Shown here: in pieces, positions 4,012 to 41,515 of the stretch | Numbering within the stretch: position 1 is the first letter of the stretch | How the letters are laid out: every line of letters begins with the position of its first letter | From: Desulfobacteraceae bacterium | GTDB lineage: Bacteria; Desulfobacterota; Desulfobacteria; Desulfobacterales; Desulfosalsimonadaceae | Length of the DNA: 47,294 nucleotides | Assembly: GCA_027858815.1 (NCBI GenBank) | Contig: JAQIBZ010000214.1 | Span: 1-47,294, forward strand | Reading direction: 5' to 3' | Notes under the pieces: generated by a model | What the model was told of the DNA's origin: nothing | Database searches by the model: none | The model's input: only the letters and a program-made list of their open reading frames with translations | Made by a program: the position numbers and the translations under genes

Positions 4012-4365
4012 CTACTTCTGATCCCGGCGGCGTTCTTTAATCCTGGCAGCTTTTCCTCTCAGGTTGCGCAGGTAGTAGATCTTAGCACGACGGACACGAC
4101 CATGAGTCACGACCTCGATTTTGGAAATACTGGGAGAATGGGTCGGAAAAACACGTTCTACACCGACACCGTAAGACACTTTACGTACGATAAAGGATGC
4201 ATTGGTGGTGCCTTTTCGCTTGCTGATGACAACGCCCTGAAATATCTGGATACGTTCTTTTTCACCTTCTCTGATTCTTACATGCACCTTAACTGTATCA
4301 CCCGGAAAGAAATCCGGATGATCAAGCCGTAACTGTTCTCTTTCTATCTGTTTAATCTTTTCCAT
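4012..4365 (-). CDS. rplS: 50S ribosomal protein L19
   Basis: 117 aa with [32 protein letters not shown], a classic L19 sequence. Confidence 0.95.
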
Positions 4366-4432
4366 GACAATCCTCTAAATTTATTTTATTTCAAAACGTA
4401 TCAAACATTACGTTTTAATGTGTTCAATAAAA

Positions 4433-5008
4433 TCACTCAACGCCCAGCAGCCTGTCCAGAATAATCGCTACCGCCGATCGAACCGGTAAATGATTATATT
4501 CCGTATTACCTTTAATGGGCTCAAGAACAAAATCCGCTGATTCGAGAAATTCTTCCGTTAACCCCCATGCAGTGCCAAAAGCAAGAAGATATGCCTGTGC
4601 CGGGTCATTCAAACGATTTTTAAAATCCTCAAACCGCAGTGCATTCTGTTTTTCAGATGCACACGTTACCACCACACGGACATCAGTGCCAGCCTTGGCT
4701 TTAATATCGTCAACAACCTGGATCAGAGAATCTTTGACCTTTACCAGCGACAATGCCTCTTTACGGTTCGGGTTATATGTACCACCCCAACCGTCAATCC
4801 AGTGAGAAACGATTTTTTCAACTAATGCTCTCTGATCTTCCAGCGGTGTTACCACATAAAATGATTCAACACCATATGTTTTTGCTATTCTGGCAATATC
4901 ATGCAGGTCAAGGTTTGTAACCGCTGACGTGATGATCTCGCCATGTTTATTTTTTACCGGATGATGCAGCAACGCAACAGACAGCTTAGGCGGAGATAAG
5001 TTGTTCAA
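4433..5008 (-). CDS. Predicted SAM-dependent RNA methyltransferase (SPOUT-like, Methyltrn_RNA_4-type) conserved between trmD and rplS
   Basis: 191 aa with [37 protein letters not shown]. The family assignment is from memory of this motif and the gene position, not from a search. Confidence 0.55.
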
Positions 5009-31404: not shown

Positions 31405-34400
31405 GATCCCGCCTCCCGTGCGGCGCTTTTTTCAGCCAGCCTTAAATGATGGTCATTGATACGGTCACCTTTGTTGCCGCCATATTGGGGGCCAAGATGA
31501 TACCAAGGAGCGGATTTTACATCCTTGCCCCGGTCTTTTTTCCAGTGGATATTGGGCTTGTCGCGTAAACACCCGGCGCCGCGTTTACCCAAATCGGGAA
31601 CGGACATGAAGGGACGGATATTGAGACGAACACCGTCGTTTAGATCCGGGTTCCAGCCCATGGGTTGTTTTTCGATGGGTTTCCAGCGGACAAAGATATC
31701 ATAGGGAGCTTCTCCTTCGAGAATCAGCTCCAGTTTTTTCTTTAATGATTCAGCCGCAGCCAATTTTTCCTGAGCACCATCAATGCCGTTTGCAATATCC
31801 TGTTTCTGGCGGGTGATCCAATCGCCCAGATAGGTATAGATCAGGGTTTCCAGGTTTTTGTAATCCAGTTTGTGATAATTCACAAGAGCAGCAAACCCGT
31901 CATGCATTCCGTCCCAGATATGCCAGATAAAAGGTCGGTGGTGGAATAGCTTGCAATGCTGAATAAAAAATTTGTCTCGCAGCCAGGTATCCAGGGTTTT
32001 GCCTACATGGTCGCTATTTTTAAGGAGCTGGCCAAGCCAATTTTGAAAAGTGGCAGTGGAAGCGGCATCCTGCCGCTTTTTATCAAGAGGCTGGAAGCCT
32101 CTTCCACTTTCCCACACAGCGGCCAAGAGATTGATCAACCGGTCAGCGGCGGAAGATTCGCCGCGCAATGGCGAAATACAGACAATGCCGTCTTCATCGG
32201 CAAAAGGCAGTAGCTCCCTTGTTTGCTCCACCCAGGCACGGGATTCATCAGAAAGTTCCATAGTGGAAGCGCCATCCTGGCGCTTGTTTTCAAGCGGCTG
32301 GAAGCCGCTTCCACTCTCCAGTTCCGCAGGCCATCGGTAACCAAGGAGGCAAGCAACAGCAACCTGCAAAACAGTAGCATCAGTGCGCAATGTAGAAGCG
32401 ACTTCCAGTCGCTTTTTCTCTTCATCCCAGATCACCGAGCCGCTTGGGTGGCCATGGAAAATCCATTGGGTGGGGTCGTCGGAGTATGGTTTTGGCAGGC
32501 CGTTGGGGTATTTTTCTTCGGCGACCTTGGTCCAGTGGTCGAGGTCGAATGGGACTTTGGTTATTGTTGCAGCCGTTACTTTAAGGGATTGATCGACAGC
32601 GCGAACATTGTCATGAAAATCACTCGATTCAACATATGCCCATATTACTGGAATGGCGCTATTATTCGTTGGGCAAATAGGACATACGTTATCATCAAAA
32701 GCTGAACCTGAATATAAAAATGGCTCTAATTTTTTCATTTTGTTCACAACCACGCCTTTACGATTGAAAACATTTTGACCATGCAACCTACATCCAAGTT
32801 GAGAGTTCAGTTCAACGTCATCTAATGGGACCTTGCAGACTTGCCCACGCCCTGACCAGGGCGATAACCCGTTTGGAGAATTAAGCCAGTAAACATGTGT
32901 ATCAGCGACTTTTGGAAACTCCCAAAAATTCATTAAAAATCTTGGGCAATCTCCGGTAGTGCTTCCTTTACCGTAATCAGCCACATTGGCTAATAAAACT
33001 TCATTTGAAAGATCATCAAACACCACCCTTGCATCTGGATTATCCAATTGTTTGGCCTGTTCCACGCCTTTGATTTCACTTGTCAATAATCCCGTGGCTT
33101 TTTCTTCGGCATTATATGGTTCAGAGACATCCAGGCCGTAAAAGTAACCAGATCTGGGCGACATAGCTACTTCTTCACCCCGACTCAATGAAATCAGAAT
33201 TGCCTTAACCACTTCTCCACTAATTGTCTCAAACGCCCCAGACCCTAATCGTGCAATCAAATGCCAGGTATCGTTTTTAAGTAATTTTTCTCTGAATTTC
33301 TTGTAGCTGGTTAAAAACAGCCAGTTCTGCGGAAGCACAATACTCGTGGAGCCACCCTTTTTAGACAATTCCAGACAACGATCCAGAAACACAGTCGCCA
33401 AATCGTTTTTGCTTTTCGGGTAATGTTTTTCACTAAATTTTCTTAGCGTTTCACCTTGCTTGCCCCTCTTCAGATAAGGCACATTGGTAATCATCCAATA
33501 ATATTTACCAGCCAAAATCTGCGCGGCCTTTGCCAATCCCTGAGCAGTCACGCCGATTTCCCGCTCCTCGAACGCCCGATCTTTTTGCAAAACTGTTTCA
33601 ACAGCCGTGGCCAGTCCATCCCACTGCACCAATTTTGCCACGGCAGTGCGCATGGGATCAATCAAACTGCCAAGCACAGGCGCATATTTAAACTCCTCAT
33701 AAAGGCCGACCAGGGCCAGGCGAAGCTTGGAGTCCCCATTAGCCAATTTTTCCCATTCGGATCGGGGCACACTCACGGACAATCCGGAACATGCCACATT
33801 CATTTCCGGTAATTGACGGTAACCACCAGAGTCAGGATACTTCCATGCCTCGATCGCCAAGGCAAAGGCAGCCAATTCCACACAGCGTTTGTCAATTTCT
33901 AGGCCATGGATATTTTCCCGCAGCACCGCATCCACTGCCTCACGGACGGTCAGGTCTTCGAGTTCTATACGCATGGGCACCAGCATTAAAAAAGCCGCTA
34001 CCAGGAAATGGCCAGACCCACAGCAGGGGTCAAGGGTTTTAAGTTCACTTAAATACTTCGGCCACCCGCCAAATGTGCCGGCAGCTGGTTGCCAAATAGT
34101 GGAAGCGGCATCCTGCCGCTTTTTATCAAGCGACTGGAAGTCGCTTCCACTTCCACTTCTCTTACAAGCAGAGTGCCCCCTGATATACAGCCTTATTTTC
34201 TCCAATTGCGCCGGATTCCGGACAATATGATCGAAAGATTCCTTTTGCCAAAAAACACCGCTTCTTCGTGCTGCCTTATTAATTTCGTTTGCAGTGAATG
34301 ACTTCCATGAATGAAGAATCCCTGAGAGATCATGTCCACCCTTGGGAGTTACCAAGACATGGATATGATTGGGCATTACCACGAAATCATCCAGGTCATA

Positions 34401-35576
34401 ACGATCACCGTCAAAATGTTTTAACGCATTTTCAACGATCGTTTTATATTCAGCGTGTTTGAGCAAACATTCGCCATAACCCTGATCGAGCCATTTTTGG
34501 ATACGGTTGGAAAATTTTTCATAGAACTCTTTTTTTGTTTTTTCATCGTGAGGTTCAGGATGCTGTTTTAGCCACTCGTCTTTTTCAGTTTGCCATGATT
34601 TCAGCTTTTCCTGTGGGAGAGAATCGGAGGTTCGGAAAGTGACAAAGTAGGTAACGCCTTCCTGTCTCCAATGAGGAAGATTTCCTGAAAGGTTGGCTAT
34701 CTCTTCGTCTTTATGGAAATAGTCGATTTCTTTCAAGCGGCTGGAAGCCGCTTCTACTTTCACAAACCGAAGGTATTCCAAAGGCACACCAGGAAGGGAT
34801 GCTTTTTGACGAAGTTCTTCTTCTGTTTGTGCATTTTTCAGATCAGCTTCACTTAAGCGCCTTGCCGCCCACCAGGCCCCCAAAGAATTATCCAAAAGAA
34901 AAGACACCATATAGGGTTCTGTAAAAAGCTGGGTCACCGCCGGGAGTTCCCGGGCGCCGATCTTTACTTCTGATGCGTTGACCTCTTCCTTCTTCTTGGC
35001 CTGCCAGAACTGATATACCCAGCCCAAGGAATCAGAAGCAGTAAAAACATCTACTGATAAATCGGCTATGAGGCGCTCCAACCTTTGCTGGTGTTCCGGC
35101 GGTAGTGTGAGTTGAAACACTGGTGAATCGATCCGGAAAATCTGGGGCAACATGCGCGCGGCATATTTTGCTGCCAGTTCCCACCCATTTTTGGCACCTT
35201 CATCATGGGCCAGATCTTCACAATCCTGAAGGGTAACAGGGACCGGATCATCCGGGTCCGGATACATGAGCAGGTTGTTTTCTGCTAAAAATCGAGCAAA
35301 TAGCATGCGGTGCCAGTGCTCATAAGCCACTTCTTCAATGAGCCTCTCAATCTCTTGAACTTGAGTATCACCGTTGCGATTATCACCCAACTGACGGCCA
35401 TGGGCACGCAATTGAACCCTCAGTTTCCGATCATCTTCAGTAAGATGTGAAAATGGCTTGGCCTCGCCCACGCCAAGTTGATTTAAGGATGCATTGGCCG
35501 CTTCCTCGGCGATGTCCCGGGCGTCCTTGACAGTACGTTCCAGTTTGTTTCGGAGTGCTTTTTCCAGTGGCTGCAT
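31401..35576 (-). CDS. pglX: BREX N6-adenine DNA methyltransferase PglX, 1391 aa, with in-frame RAYT and REP insertions
   Basis: PglX-type N-terminus with motif I LDPCCGSGHFLV and motif IV MITNVPY. GAGG RBS lies 5 nt upstream of ATG 35576. The ORF is uninterrupted despite the insertions listed separately. Confidence 0.85.
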   Translation of the reverse strand: MQPLEKALRNKLERTVKDARDIAEEAANASLNQLGVGEAKPFSHLTEDDRKLRVQLRAHGRQLGDNRNGDTQVQEIERLIEEVAYEHWHRMLFARFLAENNLLMYPDPDDPVPVTLQDCEDLAHDEGAKNGWELAAKYAARMLPQIFRIDSPVFQLTLPPEHQQRLERLIADLSVDVFTASDSLGWVYQFWQAKKKEEVNASEVKIGARELPAVTQLFTEPYMVSFLLDNSLGAWWAARRLSEADLKNAQTEEELRQKASLPGVPLEYLRFVKVEAASSRLKEIDYFHKDEEIANLSGNLPHWRQEGVTYFVTFRTSDSLPQEKLKSWQTEKDEWLKQHPEPHDEKTKKEFYEKFSNRIQKWLDQGYGECLLKHAEYKTIVENALKHFDGDRYDLDDFVVMPNHIHVLVTPKGGHDLSGILHSWKSFTANEINKAARRSGVFWQKESFDHIVRNPAQLEKIRLYIRGHSACKRSGSGSDFQSLDKKRQDAASTIWQPAAGTFGGWPKYLSELKTLDPCCGSGHFLVAAFLMLVPMRIELEDLTVREAVDAVLRENIHGLEIDKRCVELAAFALAIEAWKYPDSGGYRQLPEMNVACSGLSVSVPRSEWEKLANGDSKLRLALVGLYEEFKYAPVLGSLIDPMRTAVAKLVQWDGLATAVETVLQKDRAFEEREIGVTAQGLAKAAQILAGKYYWMITNVPYLKRGKQGETLRKFSEKHYPKSKNDLATVFLDRCLELSKKGGSTSIVLPQNWLFLTSYKKFREKLLKNDTWHLIARLGSGAFETISGEVVKAILISLSRGEEVAMSPRSGYFYGLDVSEPYNAEEKATGLLTSEIKGVEQAKQLDNPDARVVFDDLSNEVLLANVADYGKGSTTGDCPRFLMNFWEFPKVADTHVYWLNSPNGLSPWSGRGQVCKVPLDDVELNSQLGCRLHGQNVFNRKGVVVNKMKKLEPFLYSGSAFDDNVCPICPTNNSAIPVIWAYVESSDFHDNVRAVDQSLKVTAATITKVPFDLDHWTKVAEEKYPNGLPKPYSDDPTQWIFHGHPSGSVIWDEEKKRLEVASTLRTDATVLQVAVACLLGYRWPAELESGSGFQPLENKRQDGASTMELSDESRAWVEQTRELLPFADEDGIVCISPLRGESSAADRLINLLAAVWESGRGFQPLDKKRQDAASTATFQNWLGQLLKNSDHVGKTLDTWLRDKFFIQHCKLFHHRPFIWHIWDGMHDGFAALVNYHKLDYKNLETLIYTYLGDWITRQKQDIANGIDGAQEKLAAAESLKKKLELILEGEAPYDIFVRWKPIEKQPMGWNPDLNDGVRLNIRPFMSVPDLGKRGAGCLRDKPNIHWKKDRGKDVKSAPWYHLGPQYGGNKGDRINDHHLRLAEKSAAREAGS
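32056..32107 (-). repeat. REP copy A (52 nt, two hairpins plus closing stem) inside pglX
   Basis: GTGGAAGCGGCATCCTGCCGCTTTTTATCAAGAGGCTGGAAGCCTCTTCCAC, translated in frame as SGRGFQPLDKKRQDAAST. Confidence 0.85.
32263..32314 (-). repeat. REP copy B inside pglX
   Basis: GTGGAAGCGCCATCCTGGCGCTTGTTTTCAAGCGGCTGGAAGCCGCTTCCAC. Both stems differ from copy A by compensatory changes. Translated as SGSGFQPLENKRQDGAST. Confidence 0.85.
34099..34150 (-). repeat. REP copy C inside pglX, directly downstream (gene sense) of the RAYT domain
   Basis: GTGGAAGCGGCATCCTGCCGCTTTTTATCAAGCGACTGGAAGTCGCTTCCAC, translated as GSDFQSLDKKRQDAAST. Confidence 0.85.
34173..34679 (-). mobile_element. REP-associated tyrosine transposase (RAYT, IS200/IS605-like HUH-Y1) domain read in frame within pglX
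   Basis: LPHWRQEGVTYFVTFRTSDSLP...DDFVVMPNHIHVLVTP (HUH)...SWKSFTANEINK...VFWQKESFDHIVRN...RLYIRGH (candidate catalytic Tyr). No own ATG or RBS is visible. Confidence 0.75.
34731..34757 (-). repeat. Half REP (second hairpin only) upstream (gene sense) of the RAYT domain
   Basis: TTTCAAGCGGCTGGAAGCCGCTTCTAC matches the right half of copy B with 1 difference. It is read in a different frame, as VEAASSRLK. Confidence 0.75.
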
Positions 35577-36038
35577 AACACCTCAGAGTTGCCGGGAAAG
35601 AATCCCGGCCTACGATGACGAATTCTTTTTTGGTAGGTCGGGATTTCATTCCCGACATTGATCTGCATTAAAATTTACGTTTTTATTGCAACATTCATTG
35701 CGCGTGAGCATTAAAATGCGCATTTAATGGCTTTTTAATGATGGATTCACATTAAATGTCACATTAAACCAATTTTAATGTGATCGGGAATGTGAATTCA
35801 CATTCGGTTCATCAAATGGTCCGAAACCATTTTGCGGGCCATTTAAAAAAAATTGGCCCTACATCGGCCCGGGTGCAATTATCGGTGCACTTTCATGGAT
35901 ATTTGCACATTTTAAGAGTTGGTCAAATGGTACAAATCCATTCTTGAACCATTGTTTGATTAAAATGGACCAAAAAATGGCGCAATACCATTGCGGGTAA
36001 TCCGACCCCCTTTCCGGGCGGTTCGCATAACGCAGCTC
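35577..36038 (-). promoter_or_regulatory. 460-nt non-coding region between brxC and pglX, dense in palindromic operator-like sites; probable internal promoter/regulatory region
   Basis: No ORF of 60 aa or more. Three AAATGG-N7-CCATT sites (35814-35832, 35925-35942, 35975-35992). Perfect palindromes at 35759-35783 and 35788-35805 share TCACATT half-sites. Hairpins lie just upstream of the pglX RBS. Confidence 0.6.
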
Positions 36039-40040: not shown

Positions 40041-40815
40041 GTATCCAATCCATTTCCTGAGTGGTTAATAGGCTGGGAAACAACAATTCCATTACATTGC
40101 CGATGCGTTTAAACACGATCCATCCTTTTTGGGATGCGATTTCCGCCAGTTCAATGGTTCGATGTGATGGACAGTCAAGCAGGCGAGTATATTCTGAATT
40201 GAATAAAGATTCACCGCGCAACCCGGAGAGATAACCTAAAAGTAAAGCATAGGCTGCTGCGCCTGGCGTTGGAATCGCCTTTGTGCGTATTTTCTTAACC
40301 TTCCCGGTGAGATGGCCGGATTTGGTAAATGATGAATTGATATTCTGGGCAACAGATTTAAGCGTTGCTTTGCTGAAACGATCAGATTCTTTGTCGTCTA
40401 TGAATTCTTCCAATGCTTCCCGGCGGATTATGTTGCCTTCCGAAAAATTCAAAATAAAAGGCGTACTGGAACTTAAAATAGAATCCCTTGCGTAAGCACA
40501 GAGCAGTGCAATCAAAGGTCGCCCTCCTTTATCCCGTTGCCAGAAAAACCGGAGAACCCGGAACAGGGCAATTGAAGGATCTAATGCATATAAGTCTGCC
40601 AAATGCCGCGCAGTTAATTGCCTTGTTCTGACGGATCTCTTTTTCAGGCAGTTATCGTTTATGATTGAGGAAAAATATTCGTCTTTCGAAGCCGCTGGAT
40701 CGGCAACTGCATCAAAAAGCAGATCCAAGTCTTCCAGCATGATCGTGCGAGATGAGTGCGCGCCTCCCTTTGAGAAGCTAAAACCGAATTTTGATAAAAG
40801 TTCTTCTTTTTTCAC
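40027..40815 (-). CDS. brxA: BREX protein BrxA (DUF1819-like)
   Basis: 262 aa, first gene of the operon directly upstream of brxB. The assignment rests mainly on position and size; sequence recognition is weaker. Confidence 0.65.
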   Translation of the reverse strand: MKKEELLSKFGFSFSKGGAHSSRTIMLEDLDLLFDAVADPAASKDEYFSSIINDNCLKKRSVRTRQLTARHLADLYALDPSIALFRVLRFFWQRDKGGRPLIALLCAYARDSILSSSTPFILNFSEGNIIRREALEEFIDDKESDRFSKATLKSVAQNINSSFTKSGHLTGKVKKIRTKAIPTPGAAAYALLLGYLSGLRGESLFNSEYTRLLDCPSHRTIELAEIASQKGWIVFKRIGNVMELLFPSLLTTQEMDWIREQN

Positions 40816-41187
40816 TGATTTTTTTCTTAACCGTTATTGGCTGATATATTTTTAGGTTATGGTATTTAGACGATATAAAATGGTAAGGATAAAATAAATC
40901 TTTTTTATAAATGCGAACTAAAAAATGGTCTTTAGAAAATTAAAACACAACTTGCATTAAAGGATTGACCTACCATAAATATATTTTTTTAACACGATGG
41001 TAACGGATAATTATCTTTAAAAAAAACTACTTTTAAGATATACTTCCTGACAAATTTATTTTTGTTCAAAAAAGGGAAAACGATGAACCGACAGTCCCCT
41101 TACCTATACTCCCAGTTGGCACTGACGAAAAGCAGGAGTCTTATAAATTTTACGGTAATATACAAGAGAGAGGGTCTTGGGGGGGGC

Positions 41188-41331
41188 CTTGGGGTCACCC
41201 ATTAAAGGACGGGTCACCCTTGATTTTTGATTATAACAGCCAAGGTTGCTGGGGTCGGACCAAGCCAACTGCAGAATTTTAATGAATAACATCCAAAAAG
41301 CAGGCTTTTTTAACCCTATATCGCACTTTTT
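41188..41331. repeat. Direct repeat, copy 1 (partner at 47171-47294)
   Basis: 41220-41331 equals 47183-47294 with one C/T difference (41272/47235). CTTGGGGTCACC (41188-41199) also matches 47171-47182. Copy 1 has an extra 20 nt that duplicates GGGTCACC. Confidence 0.9.
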
Positions 41332-41515
41332 GCTCCCAAAAAAACGAGATATAAAAAAGGCACACCCGCCATATAAAGTACTATAATGCTCTTTTTGCCT
41401 TTAAAAAAGTCAATATAGCCTCAATTTTACTGATTATTTTAAGCGTATACGATTTAAATCCAAACAGTTAGCGTGGTCCGACCCCGATCGCACAATTTAA
41501 AATTACAAAATCAAA

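Follow-up and report, generated by a model that had tools for sequence, protein, structure and literature searches.

Origin of the brxC-pglX spacer

In the type 1 bacteriophage exclusion (BREX) locus of a Desulfobacteraceae bacterium, carried on the minus strand of a metagenomic contig and annotated with PADLOC, the genes brxC and pglX are separated by a spacer of 462 nt (35577-36038) that is rich in palindromes. The whole stretch of DNA that we analysed, hereafter the window, comprises 47 kb of this host genome; loci compared with it carry L numbers. With some reserve, we lean towards the view that the spacer is a mosaic scar, left behind as accessory elements were gained and lost between brxC and pglX, and not a purpose-built regulatory region. 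It can be divided into three segments (Table 1). Segment A is a putative mobile repeat doublet at the start of pglX, segment B resembles the spacer that follows a gene for a Schlafen-GHKL-winged helix-turn-helix (wHTH) protein in other BREX loci, and segment C is specific to this lineage. Comparison of sequences supports the composite origin of segments A and B well, and from it we infer the mechanism set out below.

A previous interpretation of this DNA, hereafter the sequence-only reading, regarded the palindromes as operator arrays for dimeric DNA-binding proteins, possibly accompanied by an attenuator, and proposed that they serve an internal promoter. All of the palindromes that it described are present, each within one base of where it had been placed, and their density is far above chance. 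Overall, the observation is confirmed, while the interpretation is partly supported.

brxC and pglX are normally adjacent, as had been assumed. In L004 and L005, whose BrxC proteins are 87% and 86% identical to that of the window, pglX begins 20 nt after brxC. The same distance is found in L002 (BrxC identity of 61%), while the gap is ~14 nt in L057 and ~150 nt in L003. In L006 (BrxC identity of 83%), a Schlafen gene starts 10 nt after brxC, and the contig ends inside this gene. Since the brxC-pglX gap is only 14-20 nt in L002, L004, L005 and L057, the spacer of the window is, as judged from sequence, a lineage-specific insertion relative to its close relatives. The absence of open reading frames (ORFs), also noted earlier, holds in the sense that none longer than 55 aa lies within the spacer on either strand; the shorter ones look like repeat artefacts. 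A second JGI contig, L001, represents the same locus (99.8% identity over 11.1 kb), and the two are identical across the whole spacer, which gives no sign of population variation there. A low-stringency blastn search revealed no second copy of the spacer within the window, and blastn against plasmids, E. coli genomes and phages gave no match.

Segment A: a REPIN-like doublet at the pglX start

Repetitive extragenic palindromes (REPs) are short, imperfect and 20-40 nt long, and one of their ends bears a conserved tetranucleotide, GTAG or CGTC (PMC3733652). Segment A holds two units of this kind, GTAGGCCGGGATTCTTTCCCGGC and GTAGGTCGGGATTTCATTCCCGAC, inverted head to head with a 19-nt spacer between them, and the pair sits 7 and 14 nt in from the two ends of the 86-nt insert. 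The 77-nt segment containing the doublet folds as a single long hairpin (-32.2 kcal/mol, z = -5.4). The overlapping alternative hairpins near the pglX ribosome-binding site, including the arms AATCCCGGCCTAC/GTAGGTCGGGATT, had been taken for a possible attenuator; they prove to be this doublet of GTAG-tagged REP units, arranged like a REPIN (REP doublet forming a hairpin).

A direct 6-bp duplication, ATGCAG, flanks segment A (35668-35663 and 35576-35571). In the alignment of the L037 and L043 spacers, its upstream copy coincides with the pglX start codon of L037. ATGCAG therefore stands at both the old and the present pglX start, which makes the 86 nt in between an insertion accompanied by a 6-bp duplication. 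A near-identical insertion, likewise with the ATGCAG duplication, occupies the same site in L043 (GCA_011390465.1) and differs by two mismatches near its upstream end; L037, L057, L004 and L005 have none. Being common to the window and L043, the insertion predates the split of the two loci. The relic of the original start heads an out-of-frame ORF of 61 codons (35668-35483), which overlaps the real pglX start and could affect PglX translation.

The whole 86-nt unit was seen at one site only, that of the window and L043. Its REP family is more widespread: the pattern GTAGGYCGGGATT-N2-4-TCCCGRC was found in 10 unrelated stretches of viral contigs, compared with ~1-2 expected by a rough estimate, and several of these matches are themselves doublets or adjoin other GTAG-tagged units. 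Overall, the sequence evidence supports well the view that segment A is a REPIN-like doublet which belongs to a dispersed family of mobile repeats and has inserted into the pglX start. As in the REP and REPIN elements described in PMC3733652, PMC3116915 and PMC3337134, each unit (35591-35656) combines a GTAG head with a short GC-rich hairpin, and the inverted pair with its short spacer and one long hairpin agrees with the REPIN definition in PMC3337134. Segment A is also intergenic, and its family recurs in unrelated contigs. Unlike typical REPINs, this family is represented by a single doublet in the 47 kb of the window, where no REP-associated tyrosine transposase (RAYT) flanked by it was seen, the sole RAYT-like domain being flanked by the GTRGAAGCGGC family. 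Further differences are the 6-bp flanking duplication and the non-REP sequence that supplies a Shine-Dalgarno. The inverted REP pair inside both ends and the 6-bp duplication recall a miniature inverted-repeat transposable element (MITE), the unit being known from its one site. The caveat of the sequence-only reading, a decayed MITE, was partly right for segment A and for no other part of the spacer.

Segment B: an array that in relatives follows a Schlafen-GHKL-wHTH gene

A scan of metagenome contigs with the palindrome TCACATTAAA-N5-TTTAATGTGA returned six stretches. Four of them share only the palindrome, and the other two, L037 and L039, are homologous to 35663-35805. Segment B is 84.6% identical to L037 12162-12293 over 143 nt (E = 4e-33), a value that exceeds the 70% identity of the adjoining first 860 nt of pglX. 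In L037 and L039, the module forms a 145-nt spacer between pglX and a gene for a 571-aa protein of AlbA_2/Schlafen, HATPase_c_4 and wHTH domains, which starts 10 nt after brxC. A search with this protein yielded over 1,400 homologues. In L037/L039, the metagenome loci L043-L049, L055 (Halomonas sp. Bachu 37, CP137552) and L056 (Desulfuromonadales), brxC is followed by the Schlafen gene, which a spacer of 95-220 nt separates from pglX. In L050-L053, an AAA_21 gene and a gene for a 175-aa protein stand between the spacer and pglX. The combination of Schlafen, minimal histidine kinase and wHTH has been described as a common BREX accessory, with no mention of intergenic sites (PMC12839542). Such a distribution supports well, at the sequence level, the identification of segment B as the spacer that follows the Schlafen-GHKL-wHTH gene in other BREX loci.

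The motif AATG[CT][TG][CA] or its complement occurs in 3-9 copies in seven of the eight spacers examined (L056 has one), which amounts to a 24-fold enrichment over the remainder of the loci. Six loci (the window, L037, L046, L050, L055 and L044) share a common architecture, in which an inverted pair with starts 18 nt apart is followed, 11-12 nt further, by a direct copy of the half-site. The window, L037 and L046 have the half-site TCACATT/AATGTGA, and L043, L044, L050 and L055 have GAGCATT/AATGCTC; the latter variant is also represented in the window by GAGCATTAAAATGCGCATTTAATG. Both arms and the extra copies change type together between loci: 92% of the cells are paired, compared with 28-42% when the partner columns are slid, and four of the 10 half-site pairs show double-sided changes. 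The additional half-sites, which lie in both orientations at varying distances, change their sequence type as well. Because position and spacing are kept, conservation exceeds that of coding DNA, and the half-sites change in concert with one another and with the wHTH (see below), segment B appears operator-like, and sequence comparison supports the view that the TCACATT block behaves like an operator array. The operator arrays of the sequence-only reading thus survive for the TCACATT block; for the AATGG-N7-CCATT sites of segment C, which are absent from related loci, they do not.

Paired changes also invite an explanation at the level of RNA. Intercistronic hairpins, formed by the REPIN and by inverted half-sites that could also pair with the direct copy, might set the BrxC:PglX ratio by terminating part of the transcripts, by directing RNase processing or by shielding the mRNA from 3' exonucleases, like the REP and bacterial interspersed mosaic elements (BIMEs) of operons. 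The sense strand of the spacer folds far more stably than shuffled sequences (z = -6.2), the complementarity of the inverted pair is kept through double-sided changes, and the extra direct copy could serve as an alternative partner. Moreover, the REPIN hairpin of -32 kcal/mol lies 14 nt upstream of the Shine-Dalgarno, and roles of REPs in termination and mRNA stabilisation have been proposed (PMC3733652). However, the antisense strand is equally stable (z = -6.7), which points to DNA palindromes rather than a strand-specific RNA, and no U run follows any hairpin of the conserved module. A DNA-binding protein would be a simpler account of extra half-sites that change in concert in both orientations and at varying distances, and an Rfam 15 covariance search of both strands of the spacer at E <= 1 gave no match. 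On balance, we regard such an RNA-level role as decidedly unlikely.

Correspondence between the wHTH and its putative sites

The last wHTH of the Schlafen-GHKL-wHTH proteins reads R[F/Y]QV[I/V]RLM...A[V/L]Y in loci with TGTGA-type sites and RN[Q/K]x[F/Y]RLM...A[R/H]Y in those with GCTC-type sites, its recognition helix and wing varying in step with the half-site type. The Schlafen proteins of L037 and L043 are 92% identical over the first 500 residues and 71% identical over the last 70; over these last 70 residues, L037 and L046, which have the site type in common, share 76%. Such a correspondence fits both direct recognition of the sites by the wHTH and co-inheritance of adjacent DNA.

Arrays of this kind are also found outside BREX. 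In L054 (Pontiellaceae bacterium B1224, GCA_029432815.1), ~460 nt of arrays (4214-4671) follow the stop codon of a homologous gene, and comprise AATGCTC sites repeated every 12 nt along with the families GCATAG/CTATGC and GTGCTC/GAGCAC. The gene caller reported this stretch as an ORF of 161 aa. Since L054 is not a BREX locus, the arrays appear to go with the Schlafen gene and not with pglX. It is also important to note that a long spacer with several site families is not unique to the window. Keeping L054 in mind, it is tempting to suppose that AATG-core arrays after Schlafen-GHKL-wHTH genes are a dedicated cis platform of this defence effector, in BREX and in L054 alike. The platform might be a DNA landing pad that tethers or silences the nuclease and couples its activation to expression of the downstream gene, which in BREX is pglX. 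Alternatively, it might be transcribed into an array of RNA hairpins that inhibit the Schlafen RNase or serve it as decoys, as in type III toxin-antitoxin systems. In either version, the window would hold a platform orphaned after effector loss. We consider this idea improbable.

No homologue of the C-terminal wHTH region of the ~570-aa Schlafen protein was found in the window. The 509-aa Schlafen-wHTH protein encoded downstream of pglX is 25% identical to the ~570-aa protein, belongs to a different subfamily and has an unrelated wHTH; in L057, a homologue of its gene directly follows pglX. tblastn of the Schlafen protein against plasmids retrieved only distant paralogues of ~25% identity. The two HTH proteins of the island, which had been suggested as binders, are not obvious candidates for this role, the likely cognate being the ~570-aa Schlafen-GHKL-wHTH protein. 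Because its gene is absent from the window, the array of segment B looks orphaned there. In viral contigs, GAATGTGAATTCACATTC, the TCACATT palindrome and two three-site array patterns had no match. The two-site pattern AAATGG-N7-CCATT...AAATGG-N7-CCATT had 20 matches there, which are tandem coding repeats or unrelated palindromes, and is uninformative.

Segment C and the case for an internal promoter

Segment C occupies the position that the Schlafen gene has in relatives. Besides its three AATGG-N7-CCATT sites, it carries further AATGG/CCATT half-sites at ~12-nt intervals. A search with tblastn for traces of a decayed Schlafen gene, brxC or pglX in segment C gave chance matches only. Neither the fetched loci nor plasmids, E. 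coli genomes and phages contain a homologue detectable with blastn, and AATGG-N7-CCATT is absent from all of the related BREX loci compared. A 14-mer, CATTTTTTGGTCCA, is common to segment C and L046 (seen by eye). By analogy with L054, segment C could represent the second site family of a longer array. The GTAG-tagged hairpin GTAGGGCCA-N12-TGGCCC, of which no other copy was seen, may be a third REP-like unit, different from the two in segment A.

The abundance of motifs in the spacer is striking. AATGG-N7-CCATT occurs three times in the window, always in the spacer, compared with 0.15 expected from shuffles, none of 100 of which reached three. Five of the 16 copies of TCACATT/AATGTGA in the window fall within 58 nt (35747-35804). 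For AATGG/CCATT pentamers, the best 250-nt bin holds nine copies (0.81 expected), and for TTAATG/CATTAA hexamers seven (0.24 expected); the densest bins of both in the window all lie inside or overlap the spacer. This strong over-representation of two site families favours the original proposal that the spacer is a working, regulated internal promoter, at which dimeric proteins, encoded in the island or elsewhere, bind both families of palindromes and free the expression of pglX and the genes after it from that of brxABC. So does the perfection of all of the palindromes despite the loss of the Schlafen gene. A weak terminator-like hairpin followed by a T run is found just after brxC (a single 6-bp candidate at 35995-35981 on the minus strand), although such hairpins are no more numerous than expected by chance and the region is as stable as shuffled sequences (z = 0.01). 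Relaxed thresholds bring up only weak -35/-10 candidates, of which the sense-strand ones overlap the TCACATT palindromes, and in a Salmonella BREX locus, internal start sites linked to inserted genes have been reported (PMC9009780).

Nevertheless, at the consensus threshold (-35/-10 hexamers with 16-18-nt spacing), the spacer contains no sigma-70 promoter, where 1.3 would be expected in shuffles, and the spacing of the best candidate differs between the window and L037. The homologous spacers of L044 and L056, with 95-110 nt, offer little room for a promoter. Furthermore, the window encodes no cognate wHTH, and the AATGG sites are missing from every related locus. Thus, we think it unlikely that the spacer works as an internal promoter.

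Several known types of signal were also considered for the spacer and rejected. AATGTGA resembles a half-site of the CRP/FNR type; in the CRP consensus, the half-sites are 6 nt apart, but here the spacings are 2, 14 and 15 nt. A sigma-54 promoter has GG in its -24 element, which the candidate GTGCAC-N5-ATTGCA (35889-35873, minus strand) lacks. Distant inverted repeats (I3, I8 and I9) that could bound an invertible promoter are present but inconsistently nested, and a scan of the larger ORFs of the window and a selection of its small ones brought up no recombinase. An integron attC site can be dismissed, there being no RYYYAAC/GTTRRRY core.

Taken to the extreme, the presence of REP units might mean that the whole spacer, AT-rich palindromes included, consists of selfish, BIME-like palindromic repeats with no BREX function. 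The spacer does contain three GTAG-tagged hairpins and is missing from the closest relatives, and pglX itself carries three in-frame 57-nt REPINs, one REP of another family and a RAYT-like domain, so that the lineage seems prone to REP invasion. However, the TCACATT module does not behave as a dispersed repeat: a single metagenome scan with its palindrome gave homologues at the same BREX position only, in L037 and L039. Even in distant taxa, the arrays accompany one particular gene, and the 47-kb window has no second cluster of any AT-rich spacer motif. We therefore hold this explanation to be very unlikely for the spacer as a whole; it fits segment A, perhaps segment C, and not segment B.

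A scenario for accessory-element turnover

Coming back to the mosaic scar that we favour, its formation can be pictured in three steps. Comparison with relatives shows, first, that 35663-35805 is the array spacer which in many type 1 BREX loci follows a ~570-aa Schlafen(AlbA_2)-GHKL-wHTH gene. Second, as the same comparison shows, the 86-nt REP-doublet element inserted exactly at the pglX start in the common ancestor of the window and L043, duplicating ATGCAG and supplying the Shine-Dalgarno now in use. Third, the Schlafen gene was presumably lost afterwards, and 233 nt with AATGG-N7-CCATT sites came to stand in its place. The AATG-core arrays would then be bound by the wHTH at the C-terminus of the Schlafen-GHKL-wHTH protein. 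Where the gene is still present, they would most likely control the transcription that enters pglX from brxC and the Schlafen gene, by acting either as a roadblock or as an internal promoter that can be repressed. In the window, transcripts starting at the brxA promoter most likely read through the REPIN hairpin into pglX, which would be translated from the new Shine-Dalgarno.

Several points weigh against this scenario. Both the binding to the arrays and their transcriptional roles are predictions from sequence, and RNA hairpins would produce the same paired changes. The match between wHTH and site types opposes two loci to four, and the 3' end of the gene and the spacer could recombine as one block. 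The array of the window is intact, and one of its palindromes is more perfect than that of L037, which is unexpected for a decaying orphan; this fits either a recent loss of the gene or continued use of the array by another protein. Since 47 kb were seen, a copy of the 570-aa gene elsewhere in the genome could act in trans. Finally, the scenario does not account for segment C, with the most striking AATGG-N7-CCATT sites.

Gene neighbourhood and features of the window

Coordinates of the genes and spacer features are collected in Table 1.

Table 1. Genes of the BREX locus and features of the brxC-pglX spacer in the window
Feature	Position	Strand	Remarks
brxA	40815-40027	-	PADLOC
brxB	40040-39489	-	PADLOC
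brxC	39482-36039	-	PADLOC
pglX	35576-31401	-	PADLOC; 1391 aa
HEC-01A/HEC-01B pair	31404-29630		AAA_21 ATPase + DUF4276; directly after pglX, overlapping its stop codon
337-aa ORF	29186-28173		after the HEC-01 pair; no Pfam or PADLOC match
509-aa Schlafen(AlbA_2)-HATPase_c_4-wHTH gene	28123-26594		downstream of pglX
788-aa ORF	26615-24249		at the position expected for pglZ; no Pfam match
brxL	24252-22204		downstream of the 788-aa ORF
Segment A (insertion)	35577-35662	-	86 nt; REPIN-like doublet and present Shine-Dalgarno GAGGTG (35584-35579)
REP unit 1, GTAGGCCGGGATTCTTTCCCGGC	35613-35591	-	GTAG + GCCGGGA-TTCTT-TCCCGGC
REP unit 2, GTAGGTCGGGATTTCATTCCCGAC	35633-35656	+	GTAG + GTCGGGA-TTTCAT-TCCCGAC
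Hairpin arms AATCCCGGCCTAC/GTAGGTCGGGATT	35601-35613 and 35633-35645		
Relic of original pglX start, ATGCAG	35663-35668	-	heads the out-of-frame 61-codon ORF
Segment B (conserved module)	35663-35805	-	3' flank of Schlafen-GHKL-wHTH gene in relatives; AATG[CT][TG][CA] half-site arrays
GAGCATTAAAATGCGCATTTAATG	35706-35729		AATGCTC/AATGCGC-type half-sites; variant predominant in L043, L044, L050, L055
CATTAAA-N7-TTTAATG	35709-35729		
Five TCACATT/AATGTGA half-sites	35747-35805		include two perfect palindromes and a direct pair of 12-nt period
Palindrome TCACATTAAA-N5-TTTAATGTGA	35759-35783		perfect
Palindrome GAATGTGAATTCACATTC	35788-35805		perfect
Segment C (lineage-specific)	35806-36038		233 nt; at the Schlafen gene position of relatives
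AATGG-N7-CCATT, copy 1	35815-35831		
GGGCCA-N12-TGGCCC	35836-35859		
GTAG-tagged hairpin GTAGGGCCA-N12-TGGCCC	35836-35862	-	-12.4 kcal/mol, z = -2.3
AATGG-N7-CCATT, copy 2	35926-35942		
AATGG-N7-CCATT, copy 3	35976-35992		overlaps the sole terminator-like hairpin

Upstream of brxA lies a stretch of ~700 nt (40816-41515) that is AT-rich (GC 0.32-0.39) and without any ORF of at least 100 aa; presumably, it is the BREX promoter region. The motifs of the spacer are all missing from it. The differences between L001 and the window are all located at the 5' end of brxA or just upstream of it (40740-40770 and 40995-41009), beside a run of N in L001. As for the relatives, brxC and pglX of L057 (2317-9874) were called as several fragments, which may reflect either a decaying locus or frameshift errors in the assembly.

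REP and RAYT insertions inside pglX

We would also like to comment on the repeats within pglX. In PglX of the window, aa 377-466 form an in-frame Y1 transposase domain of RAYT-like type (PF01797, E = 3.5e-7) that has the HxH motif 'NHIHVLV' and is absent from the PADLOC PglX profile; the region concerned spans 34100-34757 of the window, or aa ~273-493 of PglX. The domain is flanked upstream by a single REP, GTAGAAGCGGCTTCCAGCCGCTT (34757-34735), and downstream by a 57-nt REPIN, all of them in frame, which is the classic RAYT-REP arrangement. The same insertion is present in PglX of L004, L005, L043 and L057, and a search with the N-terminal part of PglX found many proteins, at 47-79% identity, in which PglX-type methyltransferase domains are combined with PF01797.

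Three in-frame 57-nt REPINs, each composed of GTGGAAGCGGCTTCCAGCCGCTT, a spacer and AAGCGGCAGGATGCCGCTTCCAC, are located in pglX at 32056-32112, 32262-32320 and 34099-34155, and each of them adds 19 codons ('SG(S/R)GFQPL(D/E)(K/N)KRQD(A/G)AST'). The window has four REP-head matches, L004 at least five and L005 at least two, at positions that vary among these close relatives, while L043 carries a copy of the pglX-type REPIN between brxB and brxC. Such variation in copy number and position indicates that the element was recently mobile. Among N-terminal fragments of PglX, P0245, P0256 and P0300 contain GIY-YIG (PF01541) and PF04480/PF18741 domains, in place of or beside the RAYT domain. Since these fragments carry different nuclease-like domains, PglX might be a hotspot for domain insertion.

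Significance and comparison with known systems

Our reading is mostly deflationary: a spacer that looks designed is interpreted as a scar, composed of a mobile REP doublet, the orphaned flank of an accessory gene and an unexplained remainder. The locus illustrates how accessory genes may be gained and lost at the brxC-pglX junction. The Schlafen-linked arrays offer a lead that is modestly novel and can be tested. A conserved array follows the Schlafen gene in all of the BREX loci examined that have sequence past it, and the site sequence tracks the last wHTH. If the wHTH does bind the array, this would provide a first handle on the way abortive-infection effectors are wired into BREX expression, and on their DNA targets.

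Repeated short operators are well known from other systems. In the omega repressor heptads of pSM19035 and in plasmid iterons, arrays of 7-bp sites, direct or inverted, are bound in a cooperative manner. Segment B is similar in having 7-nt units in both orientations at roughly helical-turn spacing. Its units are, however, 11-12 and 18 nt apart and not contiguous, and the wHTH that is the candidate for binding them forms part of a protein with Schlafen nuclease and GHKL ATPase domains.

Within BREX, the Salmonella StySA locus (PMC9009780) offers a parallel, in that an accessory insertion in the operon brings transcription signals for the downstream BREX genes. The start sites of StySA were mapped experimentally, whereas in the window no consensus promoter is detectable. 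BrxR, a regulator of the WYL type, modulates BREX expression from sites upstream of the whole operon that overlap a mapped promoter (PMC9122589). Unlike these sites, the arrays described here are internal to the operon, lie downstream of the gene of their candidate binder and number at least 3-7 half-sites each. Among the larger ORFs of the window and those of its small ORFs that were scanned, none encodes a regulator of the WYL/BrxR type. What the two systems would have in common is a wHTH protein of a defence island that binds pseudo-palindromic DNA beside BREX genes and modulates their expression, the binding being a prediction in our case.

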